DNA of 64,000 nucleotides from Verrucomicrobiota bacterium (GTDB lineage: Bacteria; Verrucomicrobiota; Verrucomicrobiia; Limisphaerales; UBA11358): positions 128,666-192,665 of the forward strand of contig JBEKKZ010000006.1 in NCBI GenBank assembly GCA_050010435.1, given 5' to 3'. The position numbers and the translations under genes were made by a program. Position 1 is the first letter of the stretch; the number at the start of each line of letters is the position of its first letter. Below, one piece after another: positions 24,911-32,193 of the stretch. The notes beneath the pieces were generated by a model, which saw only the letters and a list, made by a program, of their open reading frames with translations, ran no database searches and was not told the DNA's origin.

Positions 24911-26200
24911 TTACTTCGCCAGATTCGCGCCGGGCAGATAAATCGTGAACGTCGTCCCTTCGCCCGGCCGCGTGTGAACGTGTAATGCGCCTTTCCCTTC
25001 CTTGATGAGCCGCTGCACGATGTTGAGACCGAGGCCGGTTCCCTGTCGCGGGCCTTTGGTGGTGAAGTAAGGCTGGAAAATTTTCGGCAGCACTTCCTCC
25101 GGGATGCCGGGCCCGGTGTCGCGCACCCACAACTTCACCAGCGGGGCGGTATTGTCCATGCCCTCGACGTTCAGCAGCCGGTCGTTTGGCCCGTCCTTGA
25201 ATTTGGTCAAATCGAGCGGCTCGCGCAAAATTTCACCGCCGACCTCGACGCGATGACTCATCGGCGCGCATTGAAAGGCGTTGACGGCGAGGTTCAGCAA
25301 AATCTGGATGACGTCGGTGCCGTTCATTTTGACGCCAAGGTCTTCGGCCATCGGCTGAACGCTGAATTCGTTGTCAACCCGGCCGGGATGAACGCGGATG
25401 AGTTGTTCGAGGTCTTTGAACAATTGATTCACGCTCACGCGCGGGGCTTCTTCCGATTGACGGCGGAGAAAACCGAGGTAGCGCCGGGAAATTTCCACGC
25501 AATTCCCCACCTGCCGCGCGATGATGCGCAGGCGGTCCTTGATGAATTCCAGGTCCTCCATTTCCAGCCGTGAATTGCGATTGAGGCGCTGGTTGAGCAC
25601 CTGCACGAAACCGGAAATGACCGTCAGCGGGCCGTTGATGTCGTGGATGATGCTGGCGTAAATGTCGCCGCGCGTTTTGGCAATTTGCTCCTCAACCTTC
25701 TGGTTTTGCAGTTCGGAAAGCAATTCCTGCACTTTTTCGGCGCTGCTGTGAATTTCACTTTCGAGCGTGCGCCGTTGCATCGCCTGGCTGACGGCGGCGC
25801 GGATGGTGGCCAGGTCGAACGGCTTGTTGATGTAATCGCACGCGCGCAGCCGCAACGCCTGACGAATCGTATCCGTCGTTTCAAACGCCGTCATCATGAT
25901 CACCTCGATGTTTGGGTTCACGTATTTGAGGCGTTCCAAAACTTCGATGCCCGACATGCCGGCCATGCGAATGTCCAGCACCGCCACGTCAATGGGATGC
26001 TTCTGCGCCAGCTCAATCGCCGTTGGCCCGTCCTCGGCCATCAGTATATCGTATTCGTCCTTGAAAATGACCCGCAGCGACTGCCGCGGCCCGTCCTCAT
26101 CGTCCACAACCAACAACGTGCCGCGGCGTTTGCGAAACGTCGTGCTGTCGCCCTCAACGGGATTGCTCTTGGCAATCAATGGTTCGGTGGTCAAAGCCAT
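24911..26200 (-). CDS. hybrid receiver-histidine kinase (REC-HisKA-HATPase)
   Basis: LLVVDDEDGPRQSL...VLDIRMAGMSG is the receiver. IHDINGPLTVISGF is the H-box. DTGPGIP...GTGLGLNIV are the G-boxes. Confidence 0.8.
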   Translation of the reverse strand: MALTTEPLIAKSNPVEGDSTTFRKRRGTLLVVDDEDGPRQSLRVIFKDEYDILMAEDGPTAIELAQKHPIDVAVLDIRMAGMSGIEVLERLKYVNPNIEVIMMTAFETTDTIRQALRLRACDYINKPFDLATIRAAVSQAMQRRTLESEIHSSAEKVQELLSELQNQKVEEQIAKTRGDIYASIIHDINGPLTVISGFVQVLNQRLNRNSRLEMEDLEFIKDRLRIIARQVGNCVEISRRYLGFLRRQSEEAPRVSVNQLFKDLEQLIRVHPGRVDNEFSVQPMAEDLGVKMNGTDVIQILLNLAVNAFQCAPMSHRVEVGGEILREPLDLTKFKDGPNDRLLNVEGMDNTAPLVKLWVRDTGPGIPEEVLPKIFQPYFTTKGPRQGTGLGLNIVQRLIKEGKGALHVHTRPGEGTTFTIYLPGANLAK

Positions 26201-26276
26201 GTCCGGAAATCAACCTTTCTGTTCAATTCAAGCAAAGACGTTGAACGGCGCTACTTTACTCCAAATTTGTTTGCCC

Positions 26277-27587
26277 TCAAGAACAAACCAACCGCACACG
26301 CAGCATTTCCAATGCCTGCCATGCCGTGACTTCCTTGAATGTCCCGCGCTCATAAGGATTAAATTTGCGCTCAACCACCGTTCCAAACTCTCCGGCCAGC
26401 CCGATGAAAACCGTCCCCACCGGTTTTTCTTTTGTTCCGCCGCCCGGCCCGGCGATGCCCGTGACGGCAATGGCAAAATCCGCGCCAGTTTGTTGGCGTG
26501 CGCCTTCGGCCATTTCGCGCGCCACCGCTTCGCTCACCGCGCCGTGAGCCGCCAGCGTCTCAGCGCGAACGCCGAGAAATTTCCGCTTCGATTCGTTGCT
26601 GTAAACCACCCACCCGCCGGAGAAAACCGCCGACGCGCCCGGCACATTCGTCACGCGATGCGCGATGCAACCCCCGGTGCAGGACTCGGCCATCGCCAAG
26701 GTTTTCTTTCGTCCGGTCAAAAGCCGGACGACGACCGTTTCCATTTCCTCATCGTCAAAACCGTAAATCTGCGCGCCAAGAATTTTTTGAACGATCGCTT
26801 CCGCCGCGCGGACAATTTTTTTACCGTTCCCGCCGCGCGCCGACAATCGCACGTCCACCTGCCCCGTCCGCGCGCAATAGCCGATTTCGAGTCCGGCGGC
26901 CGCGAGCGTGTTCAGCGGCGCCTCAATTTTTTCCTGCACCAGAGACTCGGCGATGTCGCTCGTCCGCAACGTGCGGCAGACAAACGGCGCTGCCAGCGGG
27001 AATTCGCGCCGGAGCAATGGCACGACAAAATTGTCGAACATCGGACGCAACTCGCGCGGCGGCCCGGGCAGCATCACCAGCCACTTTGGAGAGGCAGATG
27101 GCAGATGGCAGATGGCAGATGGAGAATTGTGTGCGCCATCTTCCATCTCCCATTTCCTATCTGCAATTTTCATGGCCAGCCCCGGTGCGGTGCCGTTCGG
27201 ATTGGCCAGCACCATCGCGTCTTCGGGCACGAGCGCCTGGATTTCGTTGTTTTTCGGCATCGGCCGGTTGCGCGCCGCAAAACGCCTCTTGATGTGGTCG
27301 AGCACCGCGTCGTCGAGCCGCAATTTTTTGCCGAGCAGCCGCGCAATCAAATCACGCGTCAAATCATCGGAAGTTGGGCCGAGACCGCCGGTGGTGATGA
27401 TCAAATCCGCGCGGCTCAACGCCTCACGAACGGCGGATTGGATGTCGTGCGCCGTGTCCGGCACGGCCACCTGGCGTGTCACGACATAACCGAGATCCGC
27501 GAGGCGGCGGCAGAGCCATTGCTGGTGCGTGTTCAGCACGCGGCCCAGCATCAATTCGCTGCCGGTGTTGAGAAGTTCGATGTTCAC
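26277..27587 (-). CDS. cinA: CinA-family competence/damage-inducible protein (MoCF-binding plus PncC-like deamidase domains)
   Basis: MNIELLNTGSELMLGRVLNTHQQWL...IITTGGLGPTSDDLTR...LPGPPREL... The C-terminal domain has ESCTGG. Confidence 0.85.
   Translation of the reverse strand: MNIELLNTGSELMLGRVLNTHQQWLCRRLADLGYVVTRQVAVPDTAHDIQSAVREALSRADLIITTGGLGPTSDDLTRDLIARLLGKKLRLDDAVLDHIKRRFAARNRPMPKNNEIQALVPEDAMVLANPNGTAPGLAMKIADRKWEMEDGAHNSPSAICHLPSASPKWLVMLPGPPRELRPMFDNFVVPLLRREFPLAAPFVCRTLRTSDIAESLVQEKIEAPLNTLAAAGLEIGYCARTGQVDVRLSARGGNGKKIVRAAEAIVQKILGAQIYGFDDEEMETVVVRLLTGRKKTLAMAESCTGGCIAHRVTNVPGASAVFSGGWVVYSNESKRKFLGVRAETLAAHGAVSEAVAREMAEGARQQTGADFAIAVTGIAGPGGGTKEKPVGTVFIGLAGEFGTVVERKFNPYERGTFKEVTAWQALEMLRVRLVCS
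27094..27164. repeat. heptamer-based imperfect palindrome lying in frame inside cinA
   Basis: GCAGATG x4 (27094-27123) lies opposite CCATCTTCCATCTCCCATTTCCTATCTGC (27136-27164). It encodes ...KIADRKWEMEDGAHNSPSAICHLPSA... between the GTAPG and LPGPP blocks. Confidence 0.7.
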
Positions 27588-27661
27588 CCGCCCCAGTTTC
27601 GGGTGAGTTCAGGCCGCTGGCAAGTCCGCGCCGCGCTTCACTATTGTTTGGGCGGTTTGGG

Positions 27662-28498
27662 TTAGTGGACTTCGGCGGTGAAAGTCCCGACGACATAACT
27701 CTTTTGATCGTCCGGCGTGCAGAGATAAATTTTCCCCGGCAACTGGCCCCCGGCAGGTTGTCCGAACTCGATTCGCAGCGCGTATCCCCCCTTTACCGAT
27801 TCCGTCATGGGCTGGCCTTGTGCGTCCTTCCATCGCAGATTGACCATCGGCGCGTTTGTAGCATTGATCTTGATAACCACTGACTTCCCGAAGAGGTTCT
27901 CATTCCGCTTCTCCCGAAGATAAATGGTGATGCCGGCTTCCGGCGGATTATCCGCCGTGCGTATCGTTAACCCGTCTGCATTCAAAACCATCCGCTGTGG
28001 AATCAAAACTTTTCCGTGAATATACCCCACCGCCGGCGAATCCGGAATCGTCATCGTGTCCAGGTTCAACGTCCAATTCGTATCGTTGGCAGGCCGTTCA
28101 GCGACGACCGGCCCGGGCGGCACTGGCGTAGCTGTTCGTTTCTCGTCCGACGCGGTTGCGGTCTGGTTGGTTTGCCCGCTGGTGGATTTGAAGATTTTTC
28201 CACGGAACACGAACGCTGCCGCAACCGCTGCGCAGAGCAAAACCGCAAAGACGAACACCGCTACCGGAAAAGGCTTCTCGGGCGCGGTTGCCGCTCCCGA
28301 ATCCGCCTCCGCAGTCGGAATGGGACGCTCACCGACTTGTGTTCCTGCAATGATAAATTTCGGGTCGTCCGTTTCGGGCGCTTGCGGTGCGGTGATTTTC
28401 TGGAAGCACGTCGGGCATTCCATCGTTGTGCCGCTCTGCGATGAGTCGCATAGGATGTGCTGGCCGCAAACCGGACACGCATATTTAAATTCGCTCAT
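27662..28498 (-). CDS. zinc-ribbon / single-TM / periplasmic-domain protein, tandem paralogue 1
   Basis: MSEFKYACPVCGQHILCDSSQSGTTMECPTCFQKITAPQAP... (CPxC...CPxC), a TM helix FPVAVFVFAVLLCAAVAAAFVF, a Pro-rich linker, and a C-terminal domain shared with paralogue 2. Confidence 0.6.
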   Translation of the reverse strand: MSEFKYACPVCGQHILCDSSQSGTTMECPTCFQKITAPQAPETDDPKFIIAGTQVGERPIPTAEADSGAATAPEKPFPVAVFVFAVLLCAAVAAAFVFRGKIFKSTSGQTNQTATASDEKRTATPVPPGPVVAERPANDTNWTLNLDTMTIPDSPAVGYIHGKVLIPQRMVLNADGLTIRTADNPPEAGITIYLREKRNENLFGKSVVIKINATNAPMVNLRWKDAQGQPMTESVKGGYALRIEFGQPAGGQLPGKIYLCTPDDQKSYVVGTFTAEVH

Positions 28499-28613
28499 GG
28501 CGGGGGGTGATCTGTGTTTTGCCTGACTTTAATATCCCATTTTCAAAACCGGACTGCAATCCGGTATTTTCATTTATAGTGCCAGGCGGGACGGGACTCC
28601 AAACAACCACACT
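28499..28613 (-). repeat. conserved leader/intergenic unit upstream of paralogue 1
   Basis: Near-identical to 29466-29580 and 30583-30690. It contains the hairpin ACCGGACTGCAATCCGGT (28548-28565). Confidence 0.7.
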
Positions 28614-29465
28614 TTACTTTTGTTTGGCCGTTTTGGGTTTGCGGATTTCGGCATCGAAGTTCCCGGCGATGTAACTTTTCTCGGCGTCCGGTGTGCATAG
28701 ATAAACTTTCCCCGGCATACGATTGCCGGCAAGTTGGCCAAATTCGATCCGCAGCGCGTAGCCGTTCGTGAAATTTTCCCGCAGGGACAGGTTGCCCTCC
28801 TTCCAACGCAATATGACATGCGCTGCCTTTTCTGCGTTGGTGGCGACATTGATGGACTGTCCGGCAAGCGCTTCGGTCAACACGCCACCGAAATTGATTA
28901 TCGCGCCCAAATCCGTTGCGCCGCGCAACGTCAGTGTGCCCCCCTGCAAAATCGCGCGGTCGCAAATAAAGTCCCGTCCGTGGATGCGCCCCGCCACCGT
29001 CGAATCAGGAATCGTCACTGCCGCGAGTTCCAACATCCAACTCGCATCATTTGCCGGCGGCGCGACGACGACGGGTTTGGGCGGTGGCGGCGGCCTGACG
29101 GGCTTTTGCGATGGGGAGGGCCCTGGCGCGCCTTGCCCGCCGCTGGACTTGAAGATCCTTCCATGGAACGCAAACAGCGCTACCGCCGCAGCGCAGAGCA
29201 AGACGATGAAGACAATGGCCGGCAGGGAAGAATTTTCCTGCGGCGCGGGTGTGGGCGCCGCTTCCGAATCCGCCACCGCGGTCGGAATGGGACGTTCGCC
29301 CACTTTCGTGCCTTTTATGATGAATTTCGGGTCGTCCGTCGCGGGGGCTTGCGGGGCGGTGATTTTCTGGAAGCAGGTCGGGCATTCCATCACCGTGCCA
29401 GCCTGCGACGAGTCGCACTTCATGTGCTGGCCGCACACCGGACATGCATATTTGAATTCGCTCAT
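28614..29465 (-). CDS. zinc-ribbon / single-TM / periplasmic-domain protein, tandem paralogue 2
   Basis: MSEFKYACPVCGQHMKCDSSQAGTVMECPTCFQKITAPQAP..., with the same architecture and C-terminal domain type as paralogue 1. Confidence 0.6.
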   Translation of the reverse strand: MSEFKYACPVCGQHMKCDSSQAGTVMECPTCFQKITAPQAPATDDPKFIIKGTKVGERPIPTAVADSEAAPTPAPQENSSLPAIVFIVLLCAAAVALFAFHGRIFKSSGGQGAPGPSPSQKPVRPPPPPKPVVVAPPANDASWMLELAAVTIPDSTVAGRIHGRDFICDRAILQGGTLTLRGATDLGAIINFGGVLTEALAGQSINVATNAEKAAHVILRWKEGNLSLRENFTNGYALRIEFGQLAGNRMPGKVYLCTPDAEKSYIAGNFDAEIRKPKTAKQK

Positions 29466-29652
29466 GGCGCGGGGTGATCTGTATTTTGCCTGACTTTAAC
29501 ATCCCATTTTCAAAGCCGGACTGCAATTCGGCATTTTTATTTGTAGTGCCGGGCGGGACGGGGACCCAAACAACCACACTTTAATTTTATTTGGGCGTTT
29601 GGGGTTTGCGGATTTCGGTGTGTTCTTCCCCTTTTCCGCCTGACCCGGGAAT
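29466..29652 (-). repeat. conserved leader unit upstream of paralogue 2, plus a relic of a paralogue 3' end
   Basis: The leader copy has the hairpin GCCGGACTGCAATTCGGC (29515-29532). 29581-29618 still reads ...TEIRKPQTPK* on the minus strand. That matches the ...AEIRKPKTAKQK* end of paralogue 2. Confidence 0.65.
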
Positions 29653-30582
29653 TCACTCGACCGTGAATTGGAAGAGGCTGTGGGAGAGGATAATCTTCCA
29701 GTCAGCGGTGTCCTTCACAAAAAAATAGACATCATACGGACCCGGCGGCAACCGGATGCCAAAAGTGCCCTGATAGCGGCCGTTCTCATCGGTCATAGCC
29801 GGGCTAAAATCGAAATACTTCTGTGGATTGTTGCGTGTCAATTGTTCCGGCAAATTGTTGTTTCCCGCGTGCTGGATGGCGCCGTTGATGGTGAGGATAT
29901 ATTTGTGATTGGGGACGAGACCTGCAAGTGTTACCCCGATTACCAATCCACCGGGGAATGAGTCATGATACCGGATTTCGCCGGTGGCACCCGGAACTTC
30001 GCGACCGAATCCGGGCAGAGTCGTTGTCAACGGCAGAGGCTCTTCAAATGGCAAAGGACGCGCGAGATCAGCCTTGAAAGCAGCAAGGAATGAAGCCTGT
30101 GCCGGGTCTTTCACTTCAGCCTCATTTGTTCCGGCTCCAAGCACGATGCTGTCACCTTTGGCGAAGATGGCACACGCCAGCCCGACAATCGGTTTGGGCG
30201 GCGCTGGTGGAGGCATTTGCTTCCCATTCGACGCAGATGCGATTTGATTGGTTTGCCCGCTGGTGGACTTGAAATTTTTTCCACGGAACACGAACGCTGC
30301 CGCAACCGCTGCGAAGAGCAAAACCACAAAGACGAACGCCAGTGCCGGAAAATGCTTCTCGGGGGGAGTTGCCGCTCCCGAATCCGCCACCACGGTCGGA
30401 ATGGGACGTTCGCCCACTTTCGTGCCCGTGATGATAAATTTCGGGTCGTCCGACGATTTAGGCGCTTGCGGGGCGGTGATTTTCTGGAAGCAGGTCGGGC
30501 ATTCCATCACCGTGCCGCTCTGTGACGAGTCGCACTTCATGTGCTGGCCGCACACCGGACACGCATATTTAAATTCGCTCAT
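29653..30582 (-). CDS. zinc-ribbon / single-TM protein, tandem paralogue 3, with a different C-terminal beta-rich domain
   Basis: An in-frame ATG at 30582 inside the artefactual 980-aa ORF gives 309 aa. The N-terminus is MSEFKYACPVCGQHMKCDSSQSGTVMECPTCFQKITAPQAP... The C-terminus ...GRYQGTFGIRLPPGPYDVYFFVKD... is unrelated to paralogues 1 and 2. Confidence 0.6.
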   Translation of the reverse strand: MSEFKYACPVCGQHMKCDSSQSGTVMECPTCFQKITAPQAPKSSDDPKFIITGTKVGERPIPTVVADSGAATPPEKHFPALAFVFVVLLFAAVAAAFVFRGKNFKSTSGQTNQIASASNGKQMPPPAPPKPIVGLACAIFAKGDSIVLGAGTNEAEVKDPAQASFLAAFKADLARPLPFEEPLPLTTTLPGFGREVPGATGEIRYHDSFPGGLVIGVTLAGLVPNHKYILTINGAIQHAGNNNLPEQLTRNNPQKYFDFSPAMTDENGRYQGTFGIRLPPGPYDVYFFVKDTADWKIILSHSLFQFTVE

Positions 30583-30690
30583 GGCGCGGGTGATCTGTGT
30601 TTTGCCTAGCTTTAACATCCCATTTTCAAAACCGGACTGCAATCCGGCATTTTCATTTGTGGCGGCGCTCGGTGATCGCCGTTCTAGTTT
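30583..30690 (-). repeat. conserved leader unit upstream of paralogue 3
   Basis: Third copy of the leader, with the hairpin ACCGGACTGCAATCCGGC at 30631-30648. Confidence 0.65.
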
Positions 30691-30792
30691 CATCGGCCAA
30701 ATGATTCTGCGATGGTCATGAACCGCCACGGCAAACTCATTTGAGAGTGACTTTTGGCACCGTCGGGCGCACATTCGAGACCGTTGAAGCGC

Positions 30793-32193
30793 ATGAAAAA
30801 AATCTCTCCCGTTTCCCGTAGCGGACGCTTCGCGCGCGGCCCCGGCGCGGACGTGACACAATTCACCGAATCCGTTTCTTTTGACTGGCGGCTGTGGCAG
30901 CATGACATCCTCGGCTCGCTCGCCCACGCCGCCATGCTCCGCAAAATCGGCGTGCTCTCCAAAATAGAGGAAGTCGCCATCATCCGCGGACTCGACAAGA
31001 TCGGACGCGAAATCGCCACGGGCAAATTCAAGTGGAAACCCGAACTCGAAGACGTGCACATGAACATCGAGGCCTCCTTGACGAGGCGTGTTCCGGCGGG
31101 CGCCAAACTGCACACCGCCCGCTCGCGCAATGACCAAGTCGCGCTCGACATGCGCCTCTGGCTGCGCGACGAAATTGTTTTGCTGCTCGGCGAAATTGCC
31201 GGTTTGCAACGCGCGCTGGTCAGCCTCGGCGAAAAGAATTCCGCCGTGTTGATTCCGGGCTACACCCATTTGCAACGCGCGCAGCCCGTTTATCTCGCGC
31301 ATTATCTGCTCGCCTACGTCGAGATGCTCGAACGCGACTGCGAACGGCTTTGGGACTGCCACTCGCGCGTGAACGTCTGCCCGCTCGGCAGCGGCGCGAT
31401 TGCCGGCTCCACGCTGCCGCTTGACCGTGTGTTTGTCGCCAAACTCCTCGGCTTCGTGGATGCGAACGGCAAACCGCAGCTCACGCAAAATTCCATGGAC
31501 GCCGTCGGCGACCGCGATTTTGCCGTCGAATTTTGCGCCGCCGCCGCGCTGCTCGCCGTTCACATTTCGCGGCTGGCTGAGGATTTGATTCTTTGGACGA
31601 GCGCGGAATTCAATTTCATCAAAATCGCCGACGCCTACACCACCGGCTCGTCGCTCATGCCGCAAAAGAAAAACCCCGACATCGCCGAGCTTGCGCGCGG
31701 CAAATCCGGCCGCGTCATCGGCAACCTCGTCGCGCTGCTCACGCTGCTCAAGGGCCTGCCCATGACCTACAACCGCGATTTGCAGGAGGACAAGGAACGG
31801 GTGTTTGACACCGCCGACACCGTGCGTGCCACCACACGCCTCATGGCCGCGATGCTGAAGAACACAAAAGTAAATCGCGCCACCTGTACTGCCGCCGCAA
31901 GCGACCCGGCGCTGCTGGCGACGGATTTGGCCGATTATTTGGTGAAAAAGGGAATGCCATTCCGGCAGGCGCATCACGCGGTTGGCGCCGTCGTGGCACT
32001 GGCGGAAATATTGGACAAGCCGCTGAACCAGCTTTCGCTTGTGGAACTGCAATCCGTGGACAAAAAGTTCGGTCGCGATGCACTGGGCGTATTCGATTTG
32101 CAGCGCGCGATGGCTAAACGAAATCTGACCGGCGCGCCGGGAACGAAGGAAGTCGCGAAGCAACTGGCGCGCTGGCGGGAACAGCTTTCGTAA
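30793..32193 (+). CDS. argH: argininosuccinate lyase
   Basis: SGRFARGPG...GYTHLQRAQPV...GSSLMPQKKNPD is the fumarate-lyase signature. ATG 30793 is preferred over 30754. Confidence 0.9.
   Translation: MKKISPVSRSGRFARGPGADVTQFTESVSFDWRLWQHDILGSLAHAAMLRKIGVLSKIEEVAIIRGLDKIGREIATGKFKWKPELEDVHMNIEASLTRRVPAGAKLHTARSRNDQVALDMRLWLRDEIVLLLGEIAGLQRALVSLGEKNSAVLIPGYTHLQRAQPVYLAHYLLAYVEMLERDCERLWDCHSRVNVCPLGSGAIAGSTLPLDRVFVAKLLGFVDANGKPQLTQNSMDAVGDRDFAVEFCAAAALLAVHISRLAEDLILWTSAEFNFIKIADAYTTGSSLMPQKKNPDIAELARGKSGRVIGNLVALLTLLKGLPMTYNRDLQEDKERVFDTADTVRATTRLMAAMLKNTKVNRATCTAAASDPALLATDLADYLVKKGMPFRQAHHAVGAVVALAEILDKPLNQLSLVELQSVDKKFGRDALGVFDLQRAMAKRNLTGAPGTKEVAKQLARWREQLS

Follow-up and report, generated by a model that had tools for sequence, protein, structure and literature searches.

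Tandem zinc-ribbon membrane-protein genes with unrelated ectodomains on a shared head, between argH and cinA of a Limisphaerales bacterium

Results

Three tandem genes carry one head and two kinds of ectodomain

The window analysed here is a 64,000-nucleotide (nt) stretch from a Limisphaerales bacterium (G000:C6:128666-192665; genome of 3.8 Mb, 93% complete), in which three tandem minus-strand genes stand between argH (30793-32193, plus strand, divergent) and cinA (26277-27587, minus strand). Gene 1 (27662-28498, minus; 278 residues), gene 2 (28614-29465, minus; 283 residues) and gene 3 (29653-30582, minus; 309 residues) each encode a zinc ribbon, a transmembrane (TM) helix, a proline-rich stalk and an ectodomain, which is of type A in genes 1 and 2 and of type B in gene 3. 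All three were delimited from open reading frames and homologues, together with the translation for gene 1 and AlphaFold models for genes 2 and 3. The true ATG of gene 3 lies at 30582, and the stretch up to 30690, which an earlier reading of the letters (the original prediction) had included, is the upstream region of this gene. That prediction had proposed three tandem genes with a near-identical head, each behind the same leader of about 100 nt. The open reading frames agree with this, and the three units are joined by direct repeats of 130-300 nt (83-95% identity; spacing 967 and 1116-1117 nt). The ~85 nt upstream of each gene are 87-91% identical among all three copies, and the entire 115-nt intergenic region is common to copies 1 and 2. 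In the genome itself the upstream element occurs at three sites only, all at this array. The triplication is real and far beyond chance.

The full-length AlphaFold models, built from 69-sequence alignments, begin with a four-stranded zinc ribbon with two CPxC knuckles (residues 3-36, predicted local distance difference test (pLDDT) 77-85). The linker that follows is disordered, as is the Pro-rich stalk beyond the TM helix (about residues 80-103), and the chain ends in a confidently modelled beta-rich domain. The C4 zinc-ribbon head, supported by the model and by invariant Cys, comprises residues 1-41 of gene 3 (30460-30582) and lies at 29343-29465 in gene 2 and 28376-28498 in gene 1 (all minus). 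Its ribbon is CPVC-X16-CPTC, with C8, C11, C28 and C31 invariant in 37 diverse heads; the ~40-residue ribbon is followed by a conserved KFIITGTK stretch and then by a poorly conserved linker. The TM helix corresponds to a hydrophobic run of 22-23 residues in each protein (gene 3 residues 78-99, 30286-30351; gene 2, 29166-29231; gene 1, 28205-28273; all minus). Pairwise comparison of 83 A-type proteins gives mean identities of 79% in the ribbon, 19% in the linker, 31% in the TM helix, 28% in the stalk and 50% in the ectodomain, and the zinc ribbon is the most constrained segment. The predicted layout of a CPxC...CPxC ribbon, one TM helix, a Pro-rich linker and interchangeable, presumably outward-facing domains is thus borne out by the models, by homologues and by fusions in relatives.

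Scans of the three proteins against Pfam, NCBIfam and PADLOC gave no match above threshold, the PADLOC defence-system models none at E <= 0.01, and no RsgI_N, zf-HC2 or Sod_Cu match appeared in the Pfam scan. At E up to 1, hmmscan against Pfam returned other ribbons only (RPB9, LysW, Anti-TRAP and others), far below the cut-offs, with PF13717 and PF13719 not among them, and a profile search of PDB sequences with the head found generic ribbons only (LysW, Rpo12, TFIIH p44). The head motif is a CPxC...CPxC beta-ribbon and not the H-x3-C-x2-C helical domain of zinc-binding anti-sigma factors (ZAS, zf-HC2).

The membrane orientation was read from homologues. Free-standing B homologues (~190 residues) bear a classical cleavable signal peptide, and gene 3 aligns with them from its residue 137 against their residue 21, the mature N-terminus (61% identity), which argues that the C-terminal domain is extracytoplasmic. 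The ectodomains recognisable in relatives are of lectin type, and discoidin, malectin and ConA-like domains are typically extracytoplasmic. From these domains and the signal-peptide-bearing B homologues we infer an N-in/C-out topology, with the Cys4 ribbon predicted in the cytoplasm and the C-terminal domain outside. A conserved basic juxtamembrane motif, F-(R/H)-G-(K/R)-(I/N)-F-K-S, is encoded just 3' of each TM helix, on the presumed periplasmic side, and could be a lipid-contact or cleavage site.

Ectodomains A and B are unrelated and resemble known structures at most at fold level

Ectodomain B (gene 3 residues 137-309; 29656-30174, minus) is modelled as one helix and a Greek-key beta-sandwich with pLDDT above 90, and ectodomain A (28617-29051 in gene 2, 27665-28099 in gene 1; minus) as a small all-beta meander barrel, according to the model of gene 2. 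Genes 1 and 2 have homologous ectodomains (47% identity), and profile-profile comparison of A with B by hhalign returned a probability of 0.7%. Both results match the proposal that paralogues 1 and 2 share a C-terminal domain to which that of paralogue 3 is unrelated: A and B are unrelated domains.

The profile and structure searches advised in the original prediction connected neither A nor B to a named family. PDB sequence profile searches with A and with B found nothing, Foldseek against the PDB gave no match at E <= 1e-3 for the gene 3 or gene 2 model, Foldseek with B gave weak generic sandwiches only (E 1e-3 or worse), and the ESM Atlas contained unnamed clusters only. By VIA-align, the best structural matches of B were chains resembling Cu,Zn superoxide dismutase (SOD), at Z 8-9.2 against a usual background of Z 7-8; they included 6flh_A (Z 9.2, root-mean-square deviation 3.0, 103 residues aligned) and the Bacillus subtilis SOD-like 1s4i_B (Z 9.1), with identities of 9-19%. 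B is not an SOD, because only a single His (motif PNHKY) is invariant in 20 aligned B domains; the SOD metal-ligand set is not conserved, and Pfam gave no Sod_Cu match. The matches of A were weak (LpqH, OmpW and YceI-type barrels; best Z 6.6).

The head is widespread in Limisphaerales and is fused to several ectodomains

Bacteria of the order Limisphaerales are abundant in peat, soil and lakes; they are associated with polysaccharides, and most are uncultured. A search with the first 62 residues recovered more than 1068 clusters (90% identity) in the length range covered, many of them 90-98% identical over this stretch, and the head also matches ~1060 representatives at 50% clustering (E <= 0.001). 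The named sources are all Verrucomicrobiota or Limisphaerales metagenome-assembled genomes, plus some evidently mis-binned records, and the family is specific to Limisphaerales (Verrucomicrobia subdivision 3). The head is fused to A, B, F5/8 type C (discoidin), 3keto-disac_hyd (DUF1080), Laminin_G_3, DUF1349 and Malectin domains. The original prediction had not recognised the family, and no Pfam, NCBIfam, PADLOC or PDB assignment emerged; the libraries searched contain no description of the family, of its head subtype or of either ectodomain. The general architecture is known. The only existing annotation is a misleading 'RNA polymerase subunit RpoP' label.

A survey of relatives, also advised at the outset, showed that ectodomain A is present in 130 of the 163 genomes of the genus, mostly in single copy (the count takes in G299, a genome flagged unpublished, on which no other result depends). 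Ectodomain B is present in 14 of the 163, with 13 fused forms and 1 free-standing, and a search of another 200 genomes from the order detected no copy; further ectodomain types share the same head. The gene order argH, family gene(s), cinA and REC-histidine kinase is kept across the order: within 3-kb flanks of 99 loci, argH was found at 84, cinA at 76 and the kinase at 52. Ectodomain-A genes are shown by these counts to be near-core residents between argH and cinA, and in arrays of relatives the resident A gene has a B or discoidin gene as its neighbour.

Related genes also occur in another setting. At L139 (G010:C110:945-6499), in one genome of the genus, four ZnR-TM-Laminin_G_3 genes lie within 6 kb around an MFS nucleoside-symporter-like gene and are adjoined by PMT_2 (GT-C) and GT2 glycosyltransferase genes, and at L140, on another contig, similar genes lie near a NeuB gene. 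These neighbourhoods hint at a link between the family and envelope glycan synthesis.

An A domain appears to have been replaced by a B cassette

The alignment of the three units is a mosaic. Every pair of units agrees at 80-97% over the upstream region and the first ~330 nt; in the TM/linker part, genes 1 and 3 are 83-93% identical and each is only 52-73% identical to gene 2; in the ectodomain part, genes 1 and 2 are ~36-77% identical and gene 3 is unalignable. The 3' flank is 87% identical between genes 2 and 3. Behind the TGA of gene 3, 21 codons and a TAA remain in frame (29587-29652, minus) as a relic of the 3' end of an A-type gene, with 87% identity to the gene 2 tail region. The relic reads IPGSGGKGEEH...EIRKPQTPK* (asterisk, stop), and the A-type tail is ...EIRKPxTPK*; the tail ...TEIRKPQTPK* reported in the original prediction is thus a genuine remnant. 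A relic ending ...EIRKP(K/Q)TPK* follows the stop of all six B genes examined and is in frame with the TGA in five, the exception being L083.

Free B proteins end at the same residue as gene 3, so the inserted B cassette carried its own stop codon. Read-through of the TGA into the relic was considered as well; it is unlikely, given the common end of free B proteins and the frameshifted relic of L083. The in-frame state of the relic probably reflects young decay or co-conversion with the neighbouring junction.

The array itself grew by tandem duplication, the repeated unit comprising a promoter, a coding sequence and a 3' tail. The motif CCGTCCCGCC, found at 29552-29561 and again at 28585-28594 (minus), is the 5' half of a hairpin that follows single-copy A genes in relatives. 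There it continues as ...CGGCGGGACGG; here it runs into the upstream region of the next gene, and since the intergenic junctions keep only this 5' half, it marks the duplication junction. A different rearrangement of the same locus is seen in L047 (2900-3000), where pre-cinA sequence (…CTTGCCAGCAGCCTGAACCC…) is duplicated between a discoidin-type gene and an A gene.

At locus L051, only 1 of 135 nt separates the B head from the A head, and both are 25-33 nt away from all other heads; the head of the G017 B gene is closest to that of gene 2 in the window (4 differences). Such patterns in the sequences show that paralogue heads are homogenised within genomes by recombination, that is, by concerted evolution. 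In one copy of the array, the A domain was replaced by the mature part and stop codon of a secreted B-domain gene. Cassette replacement inside a conserved module, as the original prediction had envisaged, is well supported as a reading of the sequences, because A and B are unrelated and because the relic tail, the mosaic units, the free B cassette, the fusions of the head to other domains elsewhere and the head homogenisation all agree with it.

The common upstream element is best read as a promoter

A motif-free alignment of 84 distinct orthologous upstream regions revealed AAAAA..TTGCCG-N17-AATGTT with a TG at -15/-14 and the ATG ~12 nt later; the most informative positions are TTGCC, TG, A(-11) and T(-7). 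In the window, the corresponding block of gene 3 (30614-30657, minus) consists of an A-tract, a -35 TTGCAG (30637-30642), a TG (30621-30622) within the 17-nt spacer and a -10 GATGTT (30614-30619). Equivalent blocks precede gene 2 (29498-29541) and gene 1 (28531-28574; -10 GATATT), both on the minus strand. The three copies therefore share TTGCAG-N17-GAT(G/A)TT at consensus spacing, followed by 34-35 nt up to the ATG. The tRNA genes of the same genome have similar promoters, for example TTGCGG-N17-GATATT at a tRNA-Pro gene on C19. A strict consensus promoter scan did not call the three window copies; genome-wide, the exact promoter pattern occurs at these genes only, and a looser pattern gave 35 scattered matches that are uninformative. 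The leader is best read as each gene's own predicted sigma-70-type promoter with a TG-extended -10 and an UP-like A-tract.

Two other promoter assignments were rejected. A sigma-54 reading of the intergenic TGGCAC...TTGCA has, by eye, a spacing of ~19 nt against the 4-5 nt required, and TGAAAT as a -10 with a 14-nt spacer was dropped, the information peaks sitting on TG, A(-11) and T(-7).

The original prediction had instead stressed a hairpin in the leader, with a closing pair said to change from A-T to G-C in copy 2 while preserving pairing. The hairpin is a 6-bp palindrome whose arms flank the -35 hexamer (30631-30648, 29515-29532 and 28548-28565 in copies 3, 2 and 1; minus), with folding energies of -9.6, -5.3 and -9.9 kcal/mol in copies 1, 2 and 3. 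It is indeed present in all three copies, but copy 2 has an internal A.C mismatch that had been overlooked, and the hairpin is lost from the minimum-energy fold of this copy. At its closing pair, copy 1 has A-U, copy 2 has G-C and copy 3 has G-U, and the supposed pair-preserving change resolves into two independent one-sided changes from a common G.U state.

If the leader were a cis-regulatory RNA, a hairpin in the 5' untranslated region (UTR) would control translation or transcript stability of each paralogue. Its presence in all three copies agrees with this, as does the finding that 92.6% of the hairpin cells are pairable in 16 close, window-type leaders, in which several changes are G.U-compatible on the sense strand only. 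In the same 16 leaders, however, no stem pair is changed on both sides, pairing and covariation are not above shuffled controls, and the proposed covariation analysis accordingly returned no compensatory pairs. Four relatives have a disrupted stem (the B gene of G017, L047, L061 and L068), and the hairpin is absent from ~84 other orthologous upstream regions. Whole-leader folding z-scores are close to zero (-0.05, +0.71 and -0.18), the presumed 5' UTR is less structured than shuffles, and an Rfam scan of 27400-31000 gave a chance match only (18 bits, E 4.4). Because its arms directly flank the -35 hexamer, which forms the loop, the hairpin probably lies upstream of the transcription start. The conserved blocks are the A-tract, the -35 and the TG-extended -10, so the claim of a conserved RNA element is not supported, and RNA-based control is in our estimation highly improbable, although some role for the hairpin is conceivable. 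One such role would be that of an intrinsic terminator or insulator of the upstream tandem gene, formed by the hairpin and T-run, overlapping the next promoter and copied with the duplication unit. A consensus scan calls terminator-like sites on the hairpin (plus strand), the sense-strand stem is followed by UUUUG, and at internal array positions the element lies 60-70 nt after the preceding stop codon. The stem has just 6 bp and the T-run just 4 bases, copy 2 is weakened to -5.3 kcal/mol, and the element also precedes first-in-array genes facing the divergent argH, where there is nothing to terminate; we therefore consider this role possible but doubtful. Under the promoter reading, the hairpin would be a short palindrome around the -35 hexamer and at most a weak terminator or insulator between tandem genes. 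More generally, a hairpin that recurs in the leaders of tandem paralogues may be no more than a promoter copied with each gene.

Discussion

The nearest precedents are ZitP and GltJ. Both are membrane proteins whose N-terminal ribbon docks partners in the cytoplasm, the periplasmic part having a different task. In Caulobacter crescentus ZitP, the ribbon docks PopZ and the periplasmic domain acts separately (PMC5182063, PMC5182065). ZitP resembles the present proteins as a bitopic protein of ~310 residues with a cytoplasmic CxxC-Xn-CxxC ribbon (ZitP residues 1-37), one TM helix and a periplasmic domain. It differs in combining zinc_ribbon_5 (PF13719) with a periplasmic DUF3426, whereas neither PF13719 nor PF13717 matched here; the Cys spacing is 16 here against 19, the ectodomains differ, no PopZ link is known here, and the present head is shared by a set of exchangeable ectodomains. 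In Myxococcus xanthus GltJ (AgmX), the zinc ribbon is a protein-protein switch that binds its own linker and MglB, and the authors note that ZnR(-GYF) heads are joined to diverse extracellular and TM modules, also in the Planctomycetes-Verrucomicrobia-Chlamydiae (PVC) group (PMC11135422). The likeness is the N-terminal zinc ribbon on a membrane protein; unlike GltJ, the present proteins have no GYF domain and no Mgl or Agl context, and the only NCBIfam GltJ match is weak (E 0.12) and lies in the Pro-rich region. For ectodomain B alone, the closest comparison is the SOD-like beta-sandwich described above.

The paralogues may have a sensor or receptor role, as the original prediction suggested. 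Each would be a single-pass inner-membrane protein whose compact beta-rich end domain faces the periplasm or is exposed at the surface, with the Pro-rich stalk as a TonB-like spacer and the ectodomains as interchangeable ligand-binding modules. The zinc-ribbon head would most likely dock one common cytoplasmic protein partner, because it is the most constrained part and is nearly unchanged among paralogues with different ectodomains, a pattern which points to a specific interaction rather than mere anchoring. Since the head is not basic, a protein partner appears likelier than a nucleic acid. A and B are probably glycan or envelope-ligand binders, because the recognisable ectodomains in relatives (discoidin, malectin, ConA-like) are all lectin-type. 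Taken together, we hold with moderate confidence a joint reading of a docking head, exchangeable ectodomains, duplication with cassette replacement and own promoters, its functional side by inference.

Several points weigh against this account. The charges flanking the TM helix oppose the positive-inside rule (N-flank -1 to -3, C-flank +2 to +3), and the topology rests on homologues, not on charges. The adjacent genes encode no candidate partner. Glycan binding by A and B is an extrapolation from other family members, and the structural matches of A and B (Z 6.6 and 9.2) are at fold level only, with no named relatives. All relatives are metagenome-assembled genomes, and the largely pairable stem of the 16 close leaders leaves some room for a role of the hairpin.

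Two other views of the proteins have to be weighed. The ribbon might do no more than hold the N-terminus inside, as a folding plug or membrane anchor, with a TonB-like stalk and no information passing across the membrane. The Pro-rich stalk with its small globular end domain would suit such a passive tether, and B works elsewhere as a free secreted protein. Llmg_0524 and Llmg_0526 of Lactococcus lactis, to be compared here together with TcaA-type zinc membrane proteins, carry a CX2C-X10-CX2C zinc site at their cytoplasmic N-terminus, which was proposed to serve stability, and they are linked to cell-wall integrity (PMC4628341). Their lineage is unrelated, their ectodomains are of other kinds, and no sequence match connects them with the present proteins. 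An anchor is not expected to be the most conserved segment, as the ribbon is relative to the TM helix and linker, nor to recur in ~1060 representatives; we regard a passive tether as unlikely. Alternatively, ligand binding could trigger juxtamembrane and then intramembrane proteolysis, releasing the head to act on a transcription factor as RsgI acts on SigI. RsgI of cellulolytic clostridia is likewise a one-pass protein with a small cytoplasmic N-domain and paralogue-specific extracellular carbohydrate-binding sensors (PMC6852018, PMC10328401), domains of carbohydrate-binding type occur in relatives of the present family, the juxtamembrane motif is conserved on the outer side, and one structural match row concerns the RsgI4 sensor domain (Z 6.2). 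Neither RsgI_N nor zf-HC2 matched, however, and no sigI or other sigma-factor gene is adjacent, the neighbours in the window and at most of the 99 loci being argH, cinA and the REC-histidine kinase. The heads are near-identical between paralogues and have not diverged for partner specificity, contrary to one-to-one sigma/anti-sigma pairing, and an anti-sigma-type transducer is accordingly quite improbable.

A broader version of the docking-head reading is speculative and, on balance, unlikely: the head would be the common cytoplasmic output module of an unrecognised one-pass receptor system of Verrucomicrobia, in which lectin-type and A/B sensors act on one partner (possibly the conserved downstream REC-histidine kinase, or through a protease-released head), and cassette replacement together with gene conversion would keep renewing the repertoire at one fixed site between argH and cinA.

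Within the genus the family is close to core, and the locus offers a clear natural case of domain exchange: donor form, acceptor relic and junction can all still be seen, and the shared head is kept uniform by concerted evolution. If the head is a signalling or docking device, it would define how envelope or glycan recognition is coupled to the cytoplasm in these bacteria, and the same reading would also yield two new ligand-binding folds to characterise.

Further observations

In the region 24911-27662 (minus), which takes in cinA and the REC-histidine kinase gene (24911-26200), the interval from gene 1 to cinA showed no terminator-like site. Gaps of ~75 nt separate gene 1 from cinA and cinA from the kinase gene, and the gene order is kept in relatives; the three genes may be co-transcribed.

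In the same genome, the 90 nt preceding one tRNA-His call on G000:C1 consist of a tandem array of the 15-nt unit GCGGTTATGGCCGG(C/T). Two small soluble paralogues of 82-87 residues with a related ribbon (MSEFKFSCPHC...) and no TM helix are encoded on this contig (926622-926750 and 930493-930621), and more ribbon-bearing open reading frames lie on C21, C9 (a 492-residue one-pass protein) and C8. The database proteins P0349, P0343, P0379 and P0441 contain 4-15 tandem copies of a related zinc ribbon, P0349 having 15 matched stretches in 1813 residues.

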